Origin: Escherichia phage phAPEC8
Reading direction: 5' to 3' (one strand)
Length of the DNA stretch: 64,000 nt
Sequence record: NC_020079.1
Shown: positions 37,138 through 64,000 of the stretch, in pieces
Numbering within the stretch: the stretch's first letter is position 1
How the letters are laid out: every line of letters starts with the position of its first letter
The notes under the pieces: generated by a model
What the model saw: the letters and a program-made list of their open reading frames with translations, nothing else
The model's database searches: none
What the model was told of the DNA's origin: nothing
Translations under genes and position numbers: made by a program

Positions 37138-37179
37138 AAGTCTCTCCTATAAAATAGCCTCCCGAAGGAGGCTCATCTA

Positions 37180-38154
37180 TTAAACAGCAGCTTCTTCTTT
37201 TTCAGGGAAGATAAAGCTTGCAATAACACCAAGAGCTAATGTGCCTAGAACAATCATCAGACTTACGTTAGGGGAAATATCATGCGGGAGGAATGACCAC
37301 TTGGCATGAAGTGTTTCACCGAACGGGTGATACATAAGTTTAGCACCGACAAATACCAGAACCACAGCAACAGCTTTCTCTAAGTGAACCAGATATTTCA
37401 CAGCCACACTTAACACAAAGAAAAGTGCACGTAAACCAAGAACAGCCATCAGCATTGCAGAATAAACTAGCAGAGGTTCTTGTGTCACACCGATCACAGC
37501 CGGAACTGAATCAAAAGAGAAGACAATATCTGTAAGCTCAATAACAAACACACAAAGAAGAGCAGGAGTTGCATATTTAATACCATTCTTAATGGTGATG
37601 AACTTTTCACCATCTAGTGCATTGTGCACAGGCAGAACTTTACCTACTAAACGAACAGCCCAATGCTTAGAGTAATCAATATCCTCTTCTTCGTCACCAC
37701 CTTTGATGATAGCCACGGCAGACCAAGCTACAATCAAACCGAACAACACTTGGACCGACCAATGAAGGTTAAACAAAGCGGTCCCTGCTGCAACAAAAAT
37801 ACCTCGGAAGACAATGGCTCCTGCAATCCCCCAAAGTAAAATCTTATGTTGGAGATGTGTGCTCTTAATTCCAAAGCTTGCAAAAATTGCCATGAACACC
37901 ATCAAGTTATCTACAGAAAGACTCTTTTCCAACACATAGCCACTTAGGAAAAGCGCGGCAAACTCTTTACCATGTTCTACCCAAATGAATGCGTAATATC
38001 CTAAAGCTAAAGCAATCCAAAAAACAGACCAAAGCAAAGCAGATTTAATTCCAATTTCTTTATTCTCTTTATGACCAAAGAAATCGATACCAATAGACAA
38101 TGCTAAAATACCAACCAAAACAACTACATCAATAATGGGGAAACCAAGTTGCAT
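37180..38154 (-). CDS. terC: TerC-family integral membrane protein
   Basis: 324 aa; multiple TM helices; EKSLSVDN motif characteristic of TerC. Confidence 0.75.
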   Translation of the reverse strand: MQLGFPIIDVVVLVGILALSIGIDFFGHKENKEIGIKSALLWSVFWIALALGYYAFIWVEHGKEFAALFLSGYVLEKSLSVDNLMVFMAIFASFGIKSTHLQHKILLWGIAGAIVFRGIFVAAGTALFNLHWSVQVLFGLIVAWSAVAIIKGGDEEEDIDYSKHWAVRLVGKVLPVHNALDGEKFITIKNGIKYATPALLCVFVIELTDIVFSFDSVPAVIGVTQEPLLVYSAMLMAVLGLRALFFVLSVAVKYLVHLEKAVAVVLVFVGAKLMYHPFGETLHAKWSFLPHDISPNVSLMIVLGTLALGVIASFIFPEKEEAAV

Positions 38155-38173
38155 TATTTTCTCCTTTCTCTTT

Positions 38174-38232
38174 GCGGGGAACCACTCCCCGCCTCATGTG
38201 ATACATCTTACTCTATTCTAAAACTTTGTCAA
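38174..38232 (-). promoter_or_regulatory. Early-type promoter plus 5' hairpin cassette driving terC
   Basis: - strand reads TTGACA-N16-TAAGAT-gtatcacat-GGCGGGGA-gtggt-TCCCCGC-aaagagaaaGGAGaaaataATG; same architecture as the 60-64 kb cassettes. Confidence 0.55.
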
Positions 38233-38470: not shown

Positions 38471-38944
38471 TTAAAGTTTATAAATAGTCACATCGTGACC
38501 TGTTTTTACTAAAGTTTCTTCAATCATCACTTGGATGATAGCCCAATTACCTCCAGCATGTCCAGCGCCAATCATAGGTAAGCCGATCTTACATTTTTGG
38601 TCACGGAGAAGCAAATCGTTAGCCATAGCTATTAGTGCATCGTAAAGTGCATCATAGTCCAACTGACGACCTTTAGCATTGTATCCGTAACGGTATTGCC
38701 CGTATAGATTATATACCAAAGGGTCTGATTGTTCGTCTGGCACTCCTAAACTAAAACAACCTAGTTTACTTTGATCACCAGCCATTGTGTCTAAGTCTGC
38801 TGCATATGCGTAAGGAAATGCTCGTTTGATTTGTGGGGCAATACCTGCCCCCATATTACACATACAGTTGCAACAATGAGCAATAACAGTTACTTCACCT
38901 GCTTTAGCGGCATCAATAAGATTACCTGTTTTCATTTTAAGCAT
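38471..38944 (-). CDS. Macro domain protein (ADP-ribose binding/processing)
   Basis: Start at ATG behind AAGGAG; VIAHCCNCMCNMGAGIAPQIKRAFP and IGLPMIGAGHAGGNW parallel the two macro-domain glycine-rich loops. Confidence 0.55.
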   Translation of the reverse strand: MLKMKTGNLIDAAKAGEVTVIAHCCNCMCNMGAGIAPQIKRAFPYAYAADLDTMAGDQSKLGCFSLGVPDEQSDPLVYNLYGQYRYGYNAKGRQLDYDALYDALIAMANDLLLRDQKCKIGLPMIGAGHAGGNWAIIQVMIEETLVKTGHDVTIYKL

Positions 38945-56482: not shown

Positions 56483-57667
56483 ATGGCAGCACCAAAATCA
56501 TGGGAACAATATAAAGAAGAGTGTCAACCAATAGCAGAGAGTAAGCAAATCCAAATCTTAGGATGGACGGGAGAATGGAAAGGGGTTAATACAAAACTTG
56601 ATTTGTTGTGTCATTGTGGTTATAAATGGGATACTACAAGTATTAACAGTTTTAAACGTGGTGGTGGTTGTCCTATGTGTGCAGGTCAAATTAAAGATTT
56701 AAAAACATACCTTACTGAATGTAAACCAATAGCGGAAGCTAAGGGGATTACCATCATAGGTATCGTAGAACCGTTTAAAGGTGCGCGTACGAAAATGATG
56801 CTACGTTGTAGGTATGGTCATGAATGGAATACATGCAGTTTTGATAGTTTTAAACATGGCAGTGGTTGTCTTATATGTAGGTATGAGAACACAAGGAGGT
56901 CACAAACAATACCAGACGATCAACATATTGCAGATTTCTTTTCTACAGGGAAGTTTAAGGAAGGTACTATTTTCACCAATACGGGGGAACGTAAAGGGTG
57001 TGATCCAATATGGATGGTTCAGTGTCCTGTTTGTTCTCATGATGAATATGTTAAAGCTGGACTATGTGATGGTAAGTTTTATATGACGCGTAGCAATCTT
57101 AAATATGGACACTTACCCTGCCGTTGCTCTGCATCTTATAGGTATACAGCGGAACAGATTACGTATAAAGTAAGAAAGAAAATAGAAAAGAAAGGGTATG
57201 TTTGGATAGGATGGATTACCAAACCATCTTCTATAGGTAAGTTTAAATATGTATGTAAGAGTCATGGGGAACAAAAAGGAACTGCAAACAACCTTTTAAA
57301 CATAGGACAAGGTTGTCCGCAGTGTGCTAACAAAAATCAACAACAAGCCTACATTAATTATATTTACGATGAGCAAGATATTCTCTGTGCACTGAAGTTT
57401 GGTATTGCTAATAATAGTAATCGCCGTATCAAAGAACAAAATAGTCGTAATGTGTTTACTATGAAACAGGGTCAAGTGTGGCACTTCCCTACTGTGAAGC
57501 AATGCAAAGATGCAGAAAAGCGTTGTAAGCGTGTCCTTCACACGGAAGCAGTGAGCAAATATTCTATGCCAGATGGCTACACAGAGACAGTAGAGTTATC
57601 TTGCATGGCCTCAATACAAAACATTTATAAACTTTATGGTGGAATATTACAGGAGGAAACATGTTAG
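56483..57667 (+). CDS. Tandem zinc-ribbon repeat protein, possible nuclease-like C-terminus
   Basis: 394 aa; four ~55 aa repeats each ending in a CxxC knuckle (GCPMCAGQ, GCLICRYE, CPVCSHDE, GCPQCANK); C-terminal YINYIYDEQD...KFGIANNSNRR weakly GIY-YIG-like. Confidence 0.4.
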   Translation: MAAPKSWEQYKEECQPIAESKQIQILGWTGEWKGVNTKLDLLCHCGYKWDTTSINSFKRGGGCPMCAGQIKDLKTYLTECKPIAEAKGITIIGIVEPFKGARTKMMLRCRYGHEWNTCSFDSFKHGSGCLICRYENTRRSQTIPDDQHIADFFSTGKFKEGTIFTNTGERKGCDPIWMVQCPVCSHDEYVKAGLCDGKFYMTRSNLKYGHLPCRCSASYRYTAEQITYKVRKKIEKKGYVWIGWITKPSSIGKFKYVCKSHGEQKGTANNLLNIGQGCPQCANKNQQQAYINYIYDEQDILCALKFGIANNSNRRIKEQNSRNVFTMKQGQVWHFPTVKQCKDAEKRCKRVLHTEAVSKYSMPDGYTETVELSCMASIQNIYKLYGGILQEETC

Positions 57668-58039: not shown

Positions 58040-58228
58040 ATGGCACGTTTAGCAGATCATGAAATCTTTAAACCTATTCTGAACCACTATGATGAACTTA
58101 AAGCAGTGTTGGATTGTTATAGAGAGGATGAAGAACGTTTGGAAGTCAATCTTAAGATAGTTCTGATGAAAGCTTTTCAAGACGGGCAAGCTAAAGTTTT
58201 AGAAGGCATGAAAAATGAGAATAACTGA
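58040..58228 (+). CDS. Small hypothetical protein
   Basis: Start at ATG behind AGGAGA. Confidence 0.3.
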   Translation: MARLADHEIFKPILNHYDELKAVLDCYREDEERLEVNLKIVLMKAFQDGQAKVLEGMKNENN

Positions 58229-58757
58229 TGAATATGTATTCTTCTTTTCACATAAAGATGTGTTTAGTAATTGGTATATTGCACCCTTTACAGAAACTGA
58301 ACCAGGTTACAATCAGACATTTAATTGTGTCGAACAATACATGATGTGGCGTAAAGCTTTGCTTTTTAATGATCACAACACTGCACAGGCTATTCTGACT
58401 CATAGTTTGATACGGAAAGATGAGAAGATCCAAGCTTATTACAAACGTATGGGTAGGGCAGTGTCAGATTTTGATAACAACGTATGGGAAGAGAACCGTG
58501 AGCGTATTGTTATGCGAGGTTTATGCTTGAAATATGTACAGAATCCAGATTTGTATGCAGACTTACACCTTTACCAATACAAAACGTTTGTTGAAGCAAG
58601 TCCTTACGATAAGGTTTACGGTATTGGAATGGGAATGTATGAACCAGGGGTGCTAAATCCGGTCAACTGGAAAGGGCAAAATCTTTTAGGTAAATATCAT
58701 AACAAACTGATCGAAATACTTTTCCCAGACAAAATACCGCAAAGACGATATTTGTGA
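58215..58757 (+). CDS. NADAR (YbiA-like, DUF1768) domain protein
   Basis: 180 aa; YVFFFSHKDVFSNWYIAPF, FNCVEQYMMWRKALLFND, GQNLLGKYHNKLIEIL match conserved NADAR blocks. Confidence 0.55.
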   Translation: MRITDEYVFFFSHKDVFSNWYIAPFTETEPGYNQTFNCVEQYMMWRKALLFNDHNTAQAILTHSLIRKDEKIQAYYKRMGRAVSDFDNNVWEENRERIVMRGLCLKYVQNPDLYADLHLYQYKTFVEASPYDKVYGIGMGMYEPGVLNPVNWKGQNLLGKYHNKLIEILFPDKIPQRRYL

Positions 58758-58812
58758 TATTTTAACTTTTTTCATTTTTAGAACAAAGGTGTCACTTTGT
58801 AGCACAGAAATA

Positions 58813-58848
58813 AGGCTCCTACAGCACCGTAGAGAGCCTGTTATTTTG
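58813..58848 (+). terminator. Rho-independent terminator ending the + strand block
   Basis: AGGCTCCTAC...GTAGAGAGCCT stem followed by GTTATTTTGT. Confidence 0.5.
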
Positions 58849-59000
58849 TCCTATACAAACCCTTATCTTTTTCAGTTTGCATCACTAGGATTCGATCTAA
58901 GTGGGTTCCTGAAGGTTTACCAATAAGATTAAAGGTTATCTCAAATTCCCACTACCTATTATCTCAAAAATCCCTCAAATTATTTAAACTTTTTAAGAAT

Positions 59001-59047
59001 TTACAAAAGTGAAAGTTGAAAACCAAAATTTAAAGTTTAGGAAAATT
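59001..59047. repeat. AT-rich direct repeat, copy 1
   Basis: ttacaaaagtgaaagttgaaaaccaaaatttaaagtttaggaaaatt; about 75% identical to the copy at 59139-59186. Confidence 0.5.
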
Positions 59048-59138
59048 ATCTTAAAATGTTAGATACAAAACAAAACTCAAAAGTCAAGGAAAATTTTAAA
59101 AATTTTGCGCGCCCACAGTATTTAAAGTTTTTTTGCTT

Positions 59139-59186
59139 TTACAAAAATGAAAGTACAAAAGCAAAATTTAAAGTTTACAAAAATTT
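59139..59186. repeat. AT-rich direct repeat, copy 2
   Basis: tttacaaaaatgaaagtacaaaagcaaaatttaaagtttacaaaaatt. Confidence 0.5.
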
Positions 59187-59223
59187 ATGCAGGTGGGAAT
59201 GAGAAGAGTTCTCATGTGGAAAT

Positions 59224-59242
59224 GCAAATGATAATGATTCGC
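59224..59242. promoter_or_regulatory. Fur-box-like palindrome 1
   Basis: gcAAATGATAATGATTcgc; 14/19 to consensus GATAATGATAATCATTATC. Confidence 0.35.
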
Positions 59243-59281
59243 ATTTAAGTTTATAAATGAGATTGATTCTTATTCAATAAG

Positions 59282-59300
59282 GTAAATGATAATCATTCTC
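59282..59300. promoter_or_regulatory. Fur-box-like palindrome 2
   Basis: gtAAATGATAATCATTctc; core AATGATAATCATT perfect, 17/19 to consensus. Confidence 0.45.
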
Positions 59301-59531
59301 ATTTAGAGAATGACGCGCAGGGGTGGTGTTTGTCTCGCGCTCCCGTGTCCCCTCGCCATGTAATAAGAATAACAGATCCAACCAGGAAAGCAAGCGATTA
59401 TTTTATCTTTACATTTCTTTACAAATATATAGCGCCCAGCCTACCGGCGATCAACCTTCCAACCAGTGCCCCTGGTATGTTAGCCCCGCCTTTACGCCGT
59501 GGGGTGGCGCTTCCTCTTCTGTATGTAAAAC

Positions 59532-59560
59532 AGTATAAGCCCGATCCCTGGGCTTGTCAA
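59532..59560 (-). promoter_or_regulatory. Strong sigma70-like promoter on - strand facing the GC-rich non-coding segment
   Basis: - strand TTGACA-N17-TATACT; the same DNA on + strand forms hairpin AAGCCC..GGGCTT followed by a T-rich run. Confidence 0.4.
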
Positions 59561-59829: not shown

Positions 59830-59938
59830 GGTGTCGCCCTTTCTTTGTTGTGCGCCCTGGTTGGCGCGGTAGAAAGATAATAGCCCTTTCCTTTACATAT
59901 AGCAAGCAAAAAGAAAATAAAAAAGATTGAAAAAGTGG

Positions 59939-59997
59939 TTGACGTTCCTCACCTGGTAGCGTAGTATTCATCTTGTAGGGCGGCAATGGTGCCGCTC
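59939..59997 (+). promoter_or_regulatory. Promoter-hairpin cassette 1
   Basis: TTGACG-N17-TAGTAT then GGGCGGCAATGGTGCCGCTC hairpin, RBS, ATG 60017. Confidence 0.55.
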
Positions 59998-60016
59998 ACT
60001 ATTTGGAGTTAAGATC

Positions 60017-60214
60017 ATGGCAACATTGCACATTGTGGCGAAAGCTGGACAAATCAACGTAATAGTAAACGGTTTTACTGAGTTCAGTCATCCCCAGGAT
60101 GATCATGAAACGGTTTTATCTTTCATTGATTCCCTGTTAGAAATGGGAGTAATTACAGAAGACCAGCACGCTACAAAATGCAAACGCGTTAATCAAATTG
60201 CAGGAATAGAATAA
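60017..60214 (+). CDS. Early small protein
   Basis: 65 aa; RBS GGAG. Confidence 0.45.
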   Translation: MATLHIVAKAGQINVIVNGFTEFSHPQDDHETVLSFIDSLLEMGVITEDQHATKCKRVNQIAGIE

Positions 60215-60220
60215 AAAGTA

Positions 60221-60282
60221 TTGACAACAAACAACAACCTGATAAGATGTACCACATAGGGCGGCGGAATGGTCCACCGCTC
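60221..60282 (+). promoter_or_regulatory. Promoter-hairpin cassette 2
   Basis: TTGACA-N16-TAAGAT then GGGCGGCGGAATGGTCCACCGCTC. Confidence 0.55.
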
Positions 60283-60304
60283 ACAACAGAAGAGAGAAAT
60301 CATC

Positions 60305-60577
60305 ATGGCATCATATAGCGCAACAATGATCGTAGTCGGCACCACTGGTAAACCTATGAGCGGTGGCGGATCTTTCGCAAATATCAACATTGACGGGCGT
60401 TTATCCCTGGACGCAGCGATCACCGTGGCGCGGGAAACATTTAAGAAAGAATGTAAATTCAATAAACAAGATTATCTCGGTTTCGCTATTGAAAAAACCG
60501 CGCGTTTTGTTGATTATAAAAGCCCAAAAATGGTTGATACTACACTAAAAGCGCAAGATGTAGCGTTTTTGCTTTAA
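60305..60577 (+). CDS. Early small protein
   Basis: Start at ATG (MASYSAT) behind AGAAGAGAGA; the longer track ORF begins inside the hairpin. Confidence 0.45.
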   Translation: MASYSATMIVVGTTGKPMSGGGSFANINIDGRLSLDAAITVARETFKKECKFNKQDYLGFAIEKTARFVDYKSPKMVDTTLKAQDVAFLL

Positions 60578-60580
60578 GGC

Positions 60581-60635
60581 TTGACATTAACGAATAATTT
60601 GTTAATATGTTACATAAAGCGGGAATAGTTCCCGC
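60581..60635 (+). promoter_or_regulatory. Promoter-hairpin cassette 3
   Basis: TTGACA-N16-TAATAT then GCGGGAATAGTTCCCGC. Confidence 0.55.
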
Positions 60636-60653
60636 TATTTGTAAGGTGGTAGA

Positions 60654-60911
60654 ATGTTTTACATCAAATTAAAAGGTCACGTGATCGCGTTCAAAGATAA
60701 CGCTTTTTACAGATTAGCAAAATATGCGTTAATACATCCCCACTATGTTTATATAAGGGGGCGTGATGAAATAAATATCTTTGATCAAACAACATGCGAA
60801 AACATCGAGATCCGCAAGGTTGGCGTACGTGATTATCGTACATCTTTCTACCCTTGCAAGGATTCAGCAAGTCTTTTTAAAGTATGCCAATTGTTGAAAA
60901 AAGGTGGTTAA
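60654..60911 (+). CDS. Early small protein
   Basis: 85 aa; RBS AAGGTGG. Confidence 0.45.
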   Translation: MFYIKLKGHVIAFKDNAFYRLAKYALIHPHYVYIRGRDEINIFDQTTCENIEIRKVGVRDYRTSFYPCKDSASLFKVCQLLKKGG

Positions 60912-60912
60912 T

Positions 60913-61470
60913 ATGGGCCGCGAATATGTGATCCAGTCTTGGGTAAAACATGAAGCAGATGATCCGCGCATCATTCCCGATCATCTTATCGATGAATCCA
61001 CGGGATATAGCGGTGAGCAAATAGGTAACAGATTAGCACGTAGTAACGGCAACGTAAAAGCGCGTTATGTGCGCCCTGGCTGGCTGGCAAATGGTAACGC
61101 TGATTTATCCAGTGCGGAAGATGCGAGCGACGGCGCGAAAGATAATCCTTTGTACAAAGTTGATCCGGCTTTTCGTGTCCTAGATGAATACCCCAGCAAG
61201 ATAGCGGCGCTTGATGAAGCATTGGAAAGTAAGCGCATCACCTGGACCGCTTACAACATGGCAAAAAACGTACTTGATGGTAAATTGATTCAAGCTGAAA
61301 GAAAATTAGCCAAAATTGCAGCCATAGCCCAGGAGGAAGACGAGGAGACAACGGAAGAGGAAGAGTACGAAGAGATCCCGCCGTTGTTGTGTGTTGATGC
61401 TTTTCCTGATTATCAGCCGACAGAGGAAGAAAAAAGGATCGCACTAGAAAACTTTGAAAATAGTCTTTGA
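60913..61470 (+). CDS. Early protein with acidic C-terminal region
   Basis: Start at ATG (MGREYV) behind AAGGTGG; EEDEETTEEEEYEE stretch. Confidence 0.4.
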   Translation: MGREYVIQSWVKHEADDPRIIPDHLIDESTGYSGEQIGNRLARSNGNVKARYVRPGWLANGNADLSSAEDASDGAKDNPLYKVDPAFRVLDEYPSKIAALDEALESKRITWTAYNMAKNVLDGKLIQAERKLAKIAAIAQEEDEETTEEEEYEEIPPLLCVDAFPDYQPTEEEKRIALENFENSL

Positions 61471-61525
61471 CATATCGCCGCCACTGGCATAATATTTACC
61501 ACGTAGGGCGGCAATGGTGCCGCTC
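61467..61525 (+). promoter_or_regulatory. Promoter-hairpin cassette 4
   Basis: TTGACA-N17-TAATAT then GGGCGGCAATGGTGCCGCTC. Confidence 0.55.
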
Positions 61526-61552
61526 ATAGTGAAATTATGCAAGAGGCTTACA

Positions 61553-61660
61553 ATGATTAATAAAGGAAATAGCTTGACAGTTGGAACGATTAACGCTATC
61601 ATCTTAGTCGTTCCATTCTGGATCACCGTGGCAGTTATCGCAACAATCATTTTCAAGTAA
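61553..61660 (+). CDS. Small hydrophobic peptide (35 aa, not in ORF track)
   Basis: MINKGNSLTVGTINAIILVVPFWITVAVIATIIFK; first ORF after cassette 4. Confidence 0.3.
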   Translation: MINKGNSLTVGTINAIILVVPFWITVAVIATIIFK

Positions 61661-61670
61661 GGGGCACACC

Positions 61671-61862
61671 ATGTTTAAAAATATCACTGGCAACGTAGCA
61701 ACATTGAAAGCAGGCGACAAAGTAGAATTGCACCGGATCACAATGACAGTAGCGCACGTCGAGAAAGTGCCACCGCATCACCGCAAGATCTCGCTAATGT
61801 GCGACAAAGGGCGCAACATTACCGCCACACTGCACGAAAAAGATAACGTAGTCATTTTGTAA
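61671..61862 (+). CDS. Early small protein
   Basis: 63 aa; RBS AAGGGG. Confidence 0.4.
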   Translation: MFKNITGNVATLKAGDKVELHRITMTVAHVEKVPPHHRKISLMCDKGRNITATLHEKDNVVIL

Positions 61863-61872
61863 GGTGGACACT

Positions 61873-62154
61873 ATGAGCAAGGTAATTAACTATAAAGAGT
61901 TAAGCCCTACCCTTTCAATGAGTGAATGTACCGATGGGTATTGGCTGTATGATGAAACGCGCGGCATGAATTTAGCAATGCAAGCGAAAACCGAACAAGC
62001 GGCATATGTGCAAGCCCTGGAATATTACCAGCGACGACTACAGGAAGTCGAAAGCAATTATAAAAGCCTGAAATCAAAGGTTGATCACTTTATCAACCAG
62101 GTAGCAGATGACGATGATGATCACTACTGCGAACGATGCGGATCATATAGTTAA
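61873..62154 (+). CDS. Early small protein
   Basis: Start at ATG (MSKVINYK) behind AAGGTGG. Confidence 0.4.
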   Translation: MSKVINYKELSPTLSMSECTDGYWLYDETRGMNLAMQAKTEQAAYVQALEYYQRRLQEVESNYKSLKSKVDHFINQVADDDDDHYCERCGSYS

Positions 62155-62162
62155 AAATATCT

Positions 62163-62224
62163 TTGACAACGTTTAAAATTAGTGTAAGATGTATCACATA
62201 GAGCGGCGGAATGGTTTCCCGCTC
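62163..62224 (+). promoter_or_regulatory. Promoter-hairpin cassette 5
   Basis: TTGACA-N16-TAAGAT then GAGCGGCGGAATGGTTTCCCGCTC. Confidence 0.55.
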
Positions 62225-62245
62225 ACAACAGAGAGATTAAAGATT

Positions 62246-62473
62246 ATGGCTATCAATATTGTTCGCGTATCCGGTACCGTTGGTAACTCCCAGGTTGTAG
62301 CAGTTATCACAGAGAAGAAAGGGGATGATCTTCACTCTTCCTTGAATAGCTGGGCGGTCGCTAACTTCGGGCAATGGTCGAGCGTTGAGTACATCGAATC
62401 CTACCAGGTGCCGACGATTAGCCTAACCGATCTCAACGTTGATCGCTTGTTGTGCCTGGATGAATTAATCTGA
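62246..62473 (+). CDS. Early small protein
   Basis: Start at ATG (MAINIV) after purine-rich RBS; the track ORF start at 62189 lies in the hairpin. Confidence 0.45.
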   Translation: MAINIVRVSGTVGNSQVVAVITEKKGDDLHSSLNSWAVANFGQWSSVEYIESYQVPTISLTDLNVDRLLCLDELI

Positions 62474-62483
62474 AAAAAGATTG

Positions 62484-62541
62484 TTGACACCGGAAAGAAA
62501 AAGAGTAGAATATATTACATAGGGCGGCAATGGTGCCGCTC
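62484..62541 (+). promoter_or_regulatory. Promoter-hairpin cassette 6
   Basis: TTGACA-N16-TAGAAT then GGGCGGCAATGGTGCCGCTC. Confidence 0.55.
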
Positions 62542-62564
62542 ACAACAGAAGAGAGATTATCACG

Positions 62565-62780
62565 ATGGCTAATATCCGCACTTTACTGAAAAATGCAAGT
62601 CAAGTTTTATTTTCAGATGACGAGTATTTCAATAAAGACATTACAGGCGTGAAAAATTTAAAAGACGTGAAGGATGTTATCGGTATCCGTGGATCTTTAC
62701 GTAAGGGCGATTACTACGGTAACAAGGTGCAATATAAACTGTCAAAGGATTACAATTTTACTTTGACAATTATTTCATAA
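62565..62780 (+). CDS. Early small protein
   Basis: 71 aa ORF. Confidence 0.45.
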   Translation: MANIRTLLKNASQVLFSDDEYFNKDITGVKNLKDVKDVIGIRGSLRKGDYYGNKVQYKLSKDYNFTLTIIS

Positions 62781-62786
62781 AACCGC

Positions 62787-62846
62787 TTGCAATACTGCAA
62801 AAATAAAGTAAACTATATTCATCAAGGCGGGGAATGGTCCGCCGCC
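62787..62846 (+). promoter_or_regulatory. Promoter-hairpin cassette 7
   Basis: TTGCAA-N16-TAAACT then GGCGGGGAATGGTCCGCCGCC. Confidence 0.45.
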
Positions 62847-62870
62847 TAACAAAGAGAAGAGGAAAATATC

Positions 62871-63038
62871 ATGATCACTTTCGCTACCCGTGAAGCCGCT
62901 CGCAACGTTGCACGTAAAGTTAACGCCGCCAACCTGGGCGCTACACTTAAAGCCCCGGTAAAAGATGAATCAGGAAAATGGATCTTCCCTGGTTTGCGTC
63001 ACGCTGACAAGTTAGGTACTTTAAGCCTTAAAAAATAA
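62871..63038 (+). CDS. Early small basic protein (55 aa, not in ORF track)
   Basis: MITFATREAARNVARKVNAANLGATLK...; first 15 nt identical to the gene at 63113. Confidence 0.35.
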   Translation: MITFATREAARNVARKVNAANLGATLKAPVKDESGKWIFPGLRHADKLGTLSLKK

Positions 63039-63041
63039 TCG

Positions 63042-63078
63042 TTGACTTTTCGTTATAGCGCCTTATAATGGGCGCTAT
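63042..63078 (+). promoter_or_regulatory. Promoter with palindrome overlapping the -10 (cassette 8, variant)
   Basis: TTGACT-N16-TATAAT embedded in ATAGCGCC-ttataatg-GGCGCTAT. Confidence 0.5.
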
Positions 63079-63112
63079 AGAGAAGAGAAACCACTACTAA
63101 CAAGGAAACATC

Positions 63113-63334
63113 ATGATCACTTTCGCTATTGTCGCCGTTGTCGCTGGTCAAGTTTACGTAAATGAGACATTTACTACAGAAGACAAGGCGGCAGGAGATA
63201 TAACCGCCGTTTACAACGAGTGCAAGGCAGTAGAAAGGATGTTAGCGCCTTGTATGCTAATGAGTGAACGCCAGGACGGGATAACAGTATTTACTAACAT
63301 TGAAACAGGGTACCAAATGGTAGTAACAAAATAA
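63113..63334 (+). CDS. Early small protein, N-terminally hydrophobic
   Basis: 73 aa; MITFAIVAVVAGQVYV. Confidence 0.4.
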   Translation: MITFAIVAVVAGQVYVNETFTTEDKAAGDITAVYNECKAVERMLAPCMLMSERQDGITVFTNIETGYQMVVTK

Positions 63335-63337
63335 AGC

Positions 63338-63394
63338 TTGACACGGATTTAATTTTCAGTAAACTGTTACACGTAGGGCGGGAATAGTTCCCGC
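63338..63394 (+). promoter_or_regulatory. Promoter-hairpin cassette 9
   Basis: TTGACA-N16-TAAACT then GGGCGGGAATAGTTCCCGC. Confidence 0.55.
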
Positions 63395-63412
63395 TAAAAA
63401 GAGAGAAAGACC

Positions 63413-63766
63413 ATGAAAGCACAAAATGCAATTAAAGAGTACATCCTTGCCGCTATCGATTTTAATGATCACGGTATTACAACCGAAAAAGAGAAGATCG
63501 CGGAATTGATGCGCCGTTTTAATTCCGAGTACTGGTACCCTGATAACCAATCACGTTTTAATTATAGTATTGTTAAAGCACTTGCATCATGGTTACAAGG
63601 TTTGCCATCAGATATCAATATCGCTTTCGAATATTGGGAAATTGATCGCTTGTTAACATCCTGGGGATACATTAAAGAGAATAGCAACGATGATAAAATC
63701 CAACGAGAAAGGGAAAATTATTGGCTTTATATTGCAGGCGTGATCCTTGCTTGCTCTTATGAATGA
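63413..63766 (+). CDS. Early protein
   Basis: 117 aa; RBS AGAGAGAAAGA. Confidence 0.45.
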   Translation: MKAQNAIKEYILAAIDFNDHGITTEKEKIAELMRRFNSEYWYPDNQSRFNYSIVKALASWLQGLPSDINIAFEYWEIDRLLTSWGYIKENSNDDKIQRERENYWLYIAGVILACSYE

Positions 63767-63772
63767 TAAACC

Positions 63773-63826
63773 TTGACAATTTTACAAAACAGTTTAAATT
63801 AACAATATAGCGGCAATGGTGCCGCT
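63773..63826 (+). promoter_or_regulatory. Promoter-hairpin cassette 10
   Basis: TTGACA-N16-TAAATT then AGCGGCAATGGTGCCGCT. Confidence 0.5.
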
Positions 63827-63845
63827 CATATGAAGAGGAAACAAA

Positions 63846-63992
63846 ATGAATACATCTGATCGCGCAGAAAAAATTCAATCTTCCAAGATCCGCAAGGCCT
63901 GGAACGAGGAAGTGATCCGCAAAGGCGACAAGCGCAATAAAACAAAGCGCGGGAAGAGTGACAAATATAATTGGATGGATTTAGAGGATTAA
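63846..63992 (+). CDS. Early small basic protein (48 aa, not in ORF track)
   Basis: MNTSDRAEKIQSSKIRKAWNEEVIRKGDKRNK...; RBS GAGGAAA. Confidence 0.35.
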   Translation: MNTSDRAEKIQSSKIRKAWNEEVIRKGDKRNKTKRGKSDKYNWMDLED

Positions 63993-64000
63993 CATAACAA

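Follow-up and report, generated by a model that had tools for sequence, protein, structure and literature searches.

PeSL-like promoter–hairpin cassettes in the putative early gene block of Escherichia phage phAPEC8, with a predicted hairpin at the mRNA 5′ end

What is the role of a GC-rich hairpin that recurs, in copy after copy, directly behind the promoter of a small phage gene? The question is raised by a 64,000-nucleotide stretch of the genome of Escherichia phage phAPEC8 (NC_020079.1), hereafter the window, in which positions 59939–63826 carry a repeated unit of promoter and hairpin that we call the cassette. A first-pass annotation had described a ten-fold repeated cassette in front of almost every early small gene, with compensatory stem changes that argued for selection on structure. 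It had placed the hairpin at the 5′ end of each transcript, as a stability element, processing site or protein-binding site, or alternatively had seen in it a DNA operator just after the start site. Here we analyse the anatomy, conservation and exchange of these cassettes in phAPEC8 and related phages. We lean, with moderate confidence, towards reading them as portable early-expression cassettes of the promoter-early stem-loop (PeSL) type, in which the hairpin would lie at the 5′ end of the messenger RNA (mRNA) and stabilise it. The kinship with PeSLs, the role of the cassettes as crossover points and the extension of the block past the window had escaped the first-pass annotation.

A promoter–hairpin unit repeated before small genes

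Megablast placed the window in Phapecoctavirus, the phAPEC8-like myoviruses of the Stephanstirmvirinae, with bases 59900–64000 showing 92–96% identity to the E. coli phages SKA64, AV125, Schickermooser and others. Between positions 59939 and 63800 the pattern TTGACA (at most one mismatch)-N16–17-TAnnnT occurs ten times, at coordinates that we checked by script (Table 1), which agrees with the promoter count of the first-pass annotation. Its ten downstream hairpins are reduced to nine. In these nine cassettes a GC hairpin lies 3′ of the −10, at a distance of 8–10 nucleotides (nt) and of 10 nt in seven; in the tenth (cassette 8, with its −35 at 63042) a palindrome straddles the −10. The description ‘almost every’ is roughly right, in that 10 of the 13 open reading frames (ORFs) of this stretch have their own cassette. 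The remaining three, which lack one, closely trail the preceding ORF, and three closely spaced cassette-less ORFs follow cassette 4.

The served genes are 35–185 codons long and their products are without assigned function: among 14 block ORFs tested, 13 fell into PHROGs of unknown function and one (61671–61859) into no family, and a Pfam search with two block ORFs gave no match. A scan for transfer RNA and transfer-messenger RNA genes found none.

Chance does not account for the pattern. The hairpin pattern has six matches in the window against 0.34 expected from shuffled sequences, and none of 100 shuffles reached six. In the whole 64 kb no perfect GC hairpin of the cassette family stands alone: each directly follows a strong promoter. 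The other strong hairpins lie inside genes or at gene ends, some with T-tails.

The region studied is only the first third of a larger block, which runs beyond base 64000, the end of the window, and continues for about 7 kb in relatives, where the whole block spans about 11 kb and holds 16–19 cassettes by our criteria. Its gene content varies among ten close relatives. A BLAST search with one 89-nt cassette matched 154 phage records; among the matches listed, all are phages of 130–156 kb, mostly Phapecoctavirus, Justusliebigvirus (phi92) and Vequintavirinae (rV5-like), and related cassettes were also found in phi92-like, Klebsiella and rV5-like phages. A search for more distant relatives by way of the neighbouring AAA ATPase led to unrelated groups of phages.

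The hairpin lies just beyond the predicted transcription start

We determined the anatomy of the cassette from 77 copies, taken from the window and seven related phages. The unit measures about 95–105 bp. The 30 nt 5′ of the −35 are 71% A+T (44% A), compared with 60–61% for the genome. A segment with the consensus (G/T)TA(T/C)CAC(A/G)TA links the −10 to the stem, whose base lies 10 nt past the −10 in 54 of the 77 copies. The stem is GC-rich and 8–10 bp long, and between the 3′ end of the hairpin and the start codon there are 16–27 nt (mode 19–21) that contain a purine-rich Shine–Dalgarno (SD) sequence.

E. coli RNA polymerase usually starts 7–8 nt past the −10, favouring a purine that follows a pyrimidine. 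The cassettes have just these bases at the expected place: nt 8 past the −10 is A or G in 71 of 77 copies and nt 7 is C or T in 65. The hairpin would thus be the first structure of each predicted transcript, at the mRNA 5′ end, as the first-pass annotation had proposed. With +1 set at nt 8, 75 of 77 copies have 0–4 unpaired 5′ nt before the stem, most commonly 3 nt. In the nine window cassettes and most of the 77 copies, the stem lies beyond the predicted +1, unlike the layouts described for PeSLs. All ten predicted 5′ untranslated regions (UTRs) of the window fold into a hairpin (−11 to −16 kcal/mol; z-scores of −1.1 to −3.3 relative to dinucleotide shuffles), leaving the ribosome-binding site (RBS) unpaired; for the cassette hairpins overall the range is −11 to −17 kcal/mol.

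Pairing is kept while the hairpin sequence changes

Because alignment of the raw cassettes with MAFFT misplaced the 3′ arms, we instead aligned the 34 distinct core hairpins by structure, by hand and with N-padding, using the invariant GCGG...CCGC as anchor. The four central pairs do not vary. The adjoining pair 9–27 is GC in 26 hairpins, CG in 7 and GU in 1, with no mismatch; pair 10–26 is AU in 24, GC in 6 and GU in 4; and pair 2–34, the second from the base, is GC in 16, GU in 7 and AU in 6, and is unpaired in 5. The covariation score is 0.213, compared with 0.116 in column shuffles (none of 500 reached the observed value) and at most 0.085 when the partners are slid, bearing out the compensatory changes noted in the first-pass annotation.

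A stronger argument than these counts is that the slot is kept while the hairpin in it is replaced. Upstream of the gene at 60305 the hairpin is GGGCGGCGGAATGGTCCACCGCTC in phAPEC8, GGGCGGGAAGTGGTTTCCCGCTC in Schickermooser and GGGGCGACAAGCGCCCC in SKA64. Unrelated GC hairpins stand at the same distance from the −10 in a Klebsiella phage and in Vequintavirus Bas59 (for example GGGGCAAGCCCC, GGGGAGCTAATCCCC and GGGGCAAGACGTTTGCCCC), and SKA64 also carries an unrelated GC hairpin in the same slot. Conserved pairing through compensatory changes, together with unrelated hairpins in one slot, argues for selection on structure rather than on sequence, in line with the earlier proposal.

These observations bear on the idea that the hairpin is a functionless passenger that travelled with its promoter unit as duplication and gene conversion spread that unit. 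The flanks are indeed highly similar between copies, with GTATCACATAG before the hairpin and CACAACAGAAGAGAGA after it, and there has been clear exchange between cassettes. Against this stand the 34 distinct core hairpins, nearly all of them well paired, the compensatory changes between orthologous cassettes and the unrelated hairpins that hold their position across genera despite diverged flanks, and we consider a passenger extremely unlikely.

There are also hints as to which nucleic acid is selected. Among the alignment cells that depart from Watson–Crick pairing, sense-strand G·U outnumbers A·C by 16 to 5, and the G of these G·T pairs is always on the 5′ arm (GT 16, TG 0). By prediction, the sense RNA has the higher stability in 23 of the 34 distinct hairpins and the antisense RNA in 7 (Wilcoxon p = 0.009, for hairpins that are not independent of each other). 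Both biases point weakly to RNA of the gene strand over duplex DNA.

Candidate functions of the hairpin

The function that best fits the observed anatomy would be one exerted at the 5′ end of the transcript, where the hairpin probably acts as a stabiliser or insulator. Each unit would comprise, in order, an A-rich tract, a near-consensus sigma-70 promoter, the GC hairpin, an unstructured purine-rich leader of 16–27 nt with its SD sequence, and the start codon. The promoter would be read by unmodified host RNA polymerase and transcription would start 7–8 nt past the −10, giving an early mRNA that begins with 0–4 free nt followed by a hairpin of 8–10 bp. The hairpin would lengthen the life of the mRNA by restricting 5′-end-dependent attack (by RppH and through the 5′ sensor of RNase E), and would keep the ribosome site unfolded regardless of the sequence upstream. 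At the DNA level, the many near-identical cassettes supply the homology with which single gene units are added, removed or swapped between related phages. Of this account, the anatomy, the kept pairing, the lack of terminator features and the recombination junctions are shown by the sequences, while the start site, the early timing and the stabilisation are inferred.

Work by Emory, Bouvet and Belasco in 1992 reportedly found that a hairpin of any sequence stabilises mRNA if it lies no more than 2–4 nt from the 5′ end. RNase E is slowed when the 5′ end is base-paired (PMC3997798), and RppH is blocked by a 5′-terminal stem-loop (PMC8833179).

Several points weigh against a stabilising 5′ hairpin. 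RppH and RNase E need just two unpaired nt and prefer three or more (PMC8833179), so that a hairpin with the commonest predicted tail of 3 nt would give only partial protection. A plain stem-loop within the 5′ UTR is a negligible hindrance to RNase E scanning (PMC11194081), and we have for this reason dropped the idea that the hairpin acts as an obstacle to scanning. Cassette 8 and four cassettes of Bas59, in which the hairpin encloses the −35, cannot be 5′ stabilisers, which implies a function at the DNA level or on read-through transcripts for some of the stem-loops. The case for selection on structure has limits too: because the structural alignment was fitted to pairing, its share of paired cells is inflated, and the copies are paralogues that exchange by recombination, which leaves few independent compensatory events. 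Within Phapecoctavirus the GCGG/CCGC core is invariant and the apex is AATGGT or AATAGT in 59 of 77 copies, a pattern that could equally fit a sequence-specific binding partner or recent gene conversion. Finally, both the start site and the early timing are predictions; a literature search covering phAPEC8, rV5, phi92, Phapecoctavirus and Vequintavirus found no start-site or transcriptome studies.

The hairpin could instead act on transcription that arrives from upstream. As an attenuator or insulator it would pause or partly stop such polymerases and so even out expression; alternatively, it would be a protective 3′ hairpin on processed upstream messages. The context is suitable, with some twenty strong tandem promoters and few intrinsic terminators inside the block, and attenuation of read-through is the role proposed for PeSL stem-loops; those of phage RB49, inserted behind a promoter, lowered lacZ expression as much as rrnB T1 did (PMC2839356). 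The stem-loops of cassette 8 and of the four Bas59 cassettes could act only on read-through RNA or on DNA, and the hairpin orthologous to that of cassette 3 is annotated as an ARNOLD terminator in the GenBank record of Schickermooser. The sequence after the stem speaks the other way. Five or more T in the following 8 nt occur in none of 75 copies, 52 of the 75 have one T or none, the tail is 55% A, and a terminator scan called no family hairpin on the plus strand. Moreover, a terminator has no need of a fixed distance of 10 nt from the −10 and would be expected upstream of a promoter. An intrinsic (Rho-independent) terminator is ruled out by the lack of a U-tract in all 75 copies and of any plus-strand call, and we judge the wider attenuator reading to be unlikely.

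A further candidate is a common recognition handle: a phage or host protein would bind the hairpins of early transcripts and coordinately repress, cleave, protect or modify them, for instance in early shut-off. A shared ligand would account for the invariant GCGG/CCGC core and for the A-A-U-R-G-U apex that is frequent in both Phapecoctavirus and Justusliebigvirus, and because the hairpin ends 16–27 nt before the AUG, a bound protein could be near enough to affect 30S binding. The loops, however, vary (AUGG, UAG, UGG, GUGGU, UAC, CAC, UGU and CUAU), orthologous slots hold different hairpins in close relatives, as at the 60305 gene, the Bas59 sequences are unrelated, and no RNA-binding protein was identified among the neighbouring genes. 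We accordingly assign this possibility a low probability.

Other identities were considered and rejected. The earlier suggestion of a processing site found no support: stems of 8–10 bp are short for RNase III, which makes a site for this enzyme implausible. Neither the sequences nor the dimensions fit, by inspection, a mimic of clustered regularly interspaced short palindromic repeats, a tRNA-like minihelix or a repetitive extragenic palindromic (REP) element, and no tool result spoke for any of these. Rfam returned nothing relevant for the region at E ≤ 1 or for the whole window at gathering thresholds; a chance match scored 30 bits against a threshold of 94 bits.

Cassettes are crossover points for gene units

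We compared the early blocks of ten Phapecoctavirus genomes pairwise and scored an event where a segment was present in one genome and absent from another, with flanking alignments that overlap in the shorter genome, the signature of direct-repeat recombination. About 12 distinct single-gene gains or losses were found. In 5–6 of them a crossover interval of 8–70 nt lies inside a cassette, at +21 to +90 from the −35. One further unit starts 3 nt 5′ of a −35, two events use other GC hairpins, GGGGCGGCAACGCCCC and GGGCGCACCAAGCGCCC, and three or four lie elsewhere. Two of the events (2 and 3) are clean chimeras: where one phage has a gene with a cassette on either side, another has only one cassette, which follows the left copy as far as the hairpin and the right copy from there on. 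Relative to SKA64, the window lacks 1.24 kb (three to four gene units) with a junction at 62154–62230, over cassette 5; alignment with Schickermooser picks up again 9 nt 5′ of the −35 of the same cassette, whose bulged hairpin has the look of a hybrid, with a 5′ arm from one type and a 3′ arm from another. The cassettes are thus crossover points for the gain and loss of gene units between related phages.

The two other GC hairpins, GGGGCGGCAACGCCCC and GGGCGCACCAAGCGCCC (the latter followed by TTT), stand at crossovers in the distal early block of relatives (L008 18359–18626, L009 17374–17642, L001 18432–18689 and L001 20600–21141). At 61671–61862 a 63-codon ORF with no PHROG match, absent from SKA64, is flanked by two copies of a junction of about 24 nt that comprises stop codon, RBS and start codon (TTTTCAAGTAAGGGGCACACCATG and TTTTGTAAGGTGGACACTATG). 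Gene units that lack a promoter also seem to be exchanged, through such repeated junctions between adjacent ORFs.

Crossovers at palindromes raise the question of whether the element acts as DNA. It could be an inverted-repeat operator, at +3 to +25, that binds a dimeric repressor, or a cruciform that modulates the promoter or draws in structure-specific nucleases and so promotes recombination. The palindromes are located at promoters, several crossovers fall within or beside the hairpin, a location also reported for the mini-circles of RB49, and the two other GC hairpins also act as junctions. Plain homology explains the crossovers as well, since no other 20 nt of the cassette are as conserved as the hairpin. 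The spacing of the arms varies by 5 bp (hairpin length 20–25 nt) and their sequences can be replaced; bulges, one-sided G·T pairs and the energetic preference for the sense strand are unexpected for a duplex operator or a symmetric cruciform. The operator proposed by the first-pass annotation is accordingly a poor fit, a dimeric operator with fixed half-site spacing being disfavoured by the bulges and the 5-bp variation between GCGG and CCGC, and we regard this DNA-level reading as very unlikely.

A more speculative variant makes the hairpin the active site of cassette mobility in a strictly lytic phage. Structure-specific breakage or crossover at the hairpin would excise units as circles and reinsert them at other cassettes, in the manner of an integron without an integrase. 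In a related possibility the hairpin would be a shared tag that tells phage early mRNAs from host mRNAs during host shut-off. We keep both ideas in view because crossovers cluster at or near the hairpin, because other GC hairpins serve as junctions and because the GCGG/CCGC core is invariant in the genus, while considering them quite unlikely. The rV5 paper reports a Srd homologue; a Srd-like factor was sought among the tested ORFs next to the block and none was found, and we claim no link to induced decay of host mRNA.

Cassette coordinates and neighbouring features

Coordinates of all cassettes in the window are collected in Table 1.

Table 1. Promoter–hairpin cassettes in the 64,000-nt window of phAPEC8. 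A position given with a promoter element or start codon is that of its first base.
Feature	Coordinates	Strand	−35	−10	Hairpin	Start codon	Remarks
Cassette 1	59939–60019	+	TTGACG 59939	TAGTAT 59962	59978–59997, GGGCGGCAATGGTGCCGCTC = GGGCGGCA-ATGG-TGCCGCTC	ATG 60017	SD sequence before ATG
Cassette 2	60221–60307	+	60221	TAAGAT 60243	60259–60282, GGGCGGCGGAATGGTCCACCGCTC	ATG 60305	One C/A mismatch in stem
Cassette 3	60581–60656	+	60581	TAATAT 60603	60618–60636, AGCGGGAATAGTTCCCGCT = AGCGGGAA-TAG-TTCCCGCT	ATG 60654	
Cassette 4	61467–61555	+	61467	TAATAT 61490	61506–61525	ATG 61553 (probable)	35-aa membrane peptide
Cassette 5	62163–62248	+	62163	TAAGAT 62185	62201–62224, GAGCGGCGGAATGGTTTCCCGCTC	ATG 62246	Bulged hairpin
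Cassette 6	62484–62567	+	62484	TAGAAT 62506	62522–62541	ATG 62565	
Cassette 7	62787–62873	+	TTGCAA 62787	TAAACT 62809	62825–62847, AGGCGGGGAATGGTCCGCCGCCT	ATG 62871	One bulge
Cassette 8	63042–63115	+	TTGACT	TATAAT (N16 spacer)	63053–63080, palindrome TTATAGCGCC/GGGCGCTATAG	ATG 63113	Other design; palindrome encloses −10
Cassette 9	63338–63415	+	63338	TAAACT 63360	63376–63395, GGGCGGGAA-TAG-TTCCCGCT	ATG 63413	
Cassette 10	63773–63848	+	63773	TAAATT 63795	63809–63826, AGCGGCA-ATGG-TGCCGCT	ATG 63846	
Isolated eleventh cassette	38152–38232	−	38232–38227	TAAGAT 38210–38205	38192–38174, GCGGGGAGTGGTTCCCCGC	ATG 38154	

The palindrome of cassette 8 would fall outside the transcript started there, as in the classic PeSL layout. 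In Schickermooser an extra gene, gp155, directly follows the leader of cassette 8, and the next gene has a promoter-like site without a hairpin. A promoter-like sequence, TTGACA-N17-TATCAT (11 of 12 matches), also lies at 61574–61602, within the 35-codon ORF after cassette 4; it is kept in relatives (L001 10674, L008 11675) and has no family hairpin downstream.

The isolated cassette on the minus strand precedes a gene for a TerC-family membrane protein (38154–37183; Pfam E = 3e-40), at whose end there is a strong intrinsic terminator (37173–37156). Cassette, gene and terminator (37156–38232) form a self-contained expression unit in an otherwise cassette-free region, and the unit looks like an inserted accessory gene that uses the portable cassette.

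Upstream, the block adjoins an AT-rich region without convincing ORFs (58760–59560, especially 58976–59185 and 59198–59305), which contains direct repeats (one of 72 nt present twice and one of 29 nt present three times). Three or four units spaced by 29 nt, such as AATGATAATCATTCTCATTT, resemble E. coli Fur boxes, and one of them matches the 19-nt Fur consensus within three mismatches, against 0.01 expected. The equivalent position in relatives is annotated as ‘repeat_region’. Candidate identities for this stretch are an origin or iteron region and a Fur-related element.

Two predicted proteins encoded outside the block belong to the Macro and NADAR domain families, which are linked to the reversal of ADP-ribosylation: a Macro-domain protein at 38474–38944 on the minus strand (a weak Pfam match, E = 9e-5, 22.9 bits against a cutoff of 22) and a NADAR-domain protein at 58215–58754 on the plus strand (E = 2e-35). 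They may be counter-defence genes. An endonuclease gene at 56483–57664, with CapR-homology and treble-clef zinc-finger domains (PHROG ‘endonuclease’/HNH), is annotated at 1461 nt in Schickermooser, 981 nt in SKA64 and 999 nt in tuntematon; located just upstream of the early block, it is a variable element, possibly of the homing type.

Implications

With these cassettes the PeSL idea, known from T4-like phages, extends to phages like phAPEC8, phi92 and rV5, which form a second large group of myoviruses of E. coli and one used in phage therapy collections. Modular exchange through cassettes may be a general route by which early host-takeover genes turn over in large lytic phages. The combination of promoter, 5′ hairpin and open RBS is a natural design that could serve strong, context-independent expression, and the cassettes may help in studying how phage early mRNAs survive 5′-end-dependent decay. 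For annotation, such hairpins should not be labelled as terminators, as they are in at least one GenBank record.

Comparison with known systems

The literature that we searched contained no account of such cassettes in phages like phAPEC8, phi92 or rV5; in the rV5 paper, 33 promoters and 20 terminators are given with no mention of an association between promoters and hairpins. The closest known elements are the PeSLs of the T4-type phages RB49/phi1, PST/T4 and nt-1/KVP40 (Arbiol et al. 2010, PMC2839356; Comeau et al. 2014, PMC4122927), which cluster in hyperplastic regions on either side of orphan genes and give rise to modular shuffling and mini-circles. The cassettes share with them a length of about 100 bp and the same components: an AT-rich tract, a near-consensus sigma-70 promoter, a stable GC stem-loop, and an SD sequence with ATG. 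Both are repeated dozens of times in a variable region, each copy with a small gene of unknown function (the PeSL ORFans of PMC2839356), and in both, close relatives differ by cassette-bounded units with crossovers inside the cassette and sometimes in the stem-loop.

There are also clear differences. The lineage here is Stephanstirmvirinae/Vequintavirinae rather than T4-like. PeSL stem-loops mostly lie between or over the −35 and −10 or upstream of the −35, with only one of five subclasses after the −10, ‘just before’ the start, whereas the stem-loop here is almost always 10 nt past the −10, beyond the predicted start and within the predicted transcript. PeSL stem-loops acted as strong terminators in a reporter assay, whereas the hairpins here have no T-tract, and their stems are GCGG...CCGC in place of the Gn-loop-Cn of PeSLs. 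The classic PeSL design coexists with the new one, in cassette 8 and in four cassettes of Bas59. The latter make up a second cassette type in that phage (L006 20755–20834, 21376–21464, 21711–21786 and 25119–25211), in which the hairpin GATGGCCTTGACTCCAGGGCCATC holds the −35 TTGACT in its loop and 5′ arm and a T-run lies upstream, again the classic PeSL layout.

As predicted mRNA elements, the hairpins resemble the 5′-terminal stem-loops that stabilise mRNA in E. coli, those of the ompA and papA leaders. The 1992 study by Emory, Bouvet and Belasco is said to have found that the sequence of these hairpins is unimportant and their position critical. As in those stabilisers (PMC3997798), the hairpin would lie a few nt from the 5′ end and be followed by an accessible ribosome site. 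The difference is that stabilisation is here a prediction, for a free tail that is mostly 2–4 nt, the limit for blocking RppH and RNase E (PMC8833179), and that the element is present in about 20 copies per genome as part of a mobile promoter unit.

Small RNA hairpins also lie just downstream of early phage promoters in lambda nut and HK022 put. The stems of the cassettes are GC-rich, 8–10 bp long and capped by variable loops, whereas boxB has a 5-bp stem with a GNRA-like pentaloop; each gene rather than each operon has its hairpin, and put RNAs are about 70 nt long with two stems (PMC9378689). A nut boxA was considered and rejected, as CGCUCACAAC agrees with boxA at only 5 + 4 positions, overlaps the stem and is missing from many copies.

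The early promoters of phage N4 are likewise tied to a short GC hairpin. In N4 the hairpin is itself the promoter, stands upstream of the start and is recognised by the virion RNA polymerase, whereas the cassettes have a full sigma-70 promoter ahead of the hairpin and involve no virion RNA polymerase.

Repeated intergenic palindromes are found as REP elements and bacterial interspersed mosaic elements, and integron attC hairpins bound single-ORF cassettes that are able to circularise. The cassettes described here differ in carrying their own promoter, in being co-oriented with their genes and located at 5′ rather than 3′ ends, and in having no integrase; the exchanges seen are compatible with ordinary homologous recombination. 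The element is best classed with the mobile regulatory cassettes of PeSL type, as one that comes from a new phage lineage and has a hairpin that is, by its predicted start site, consistently transcribed.

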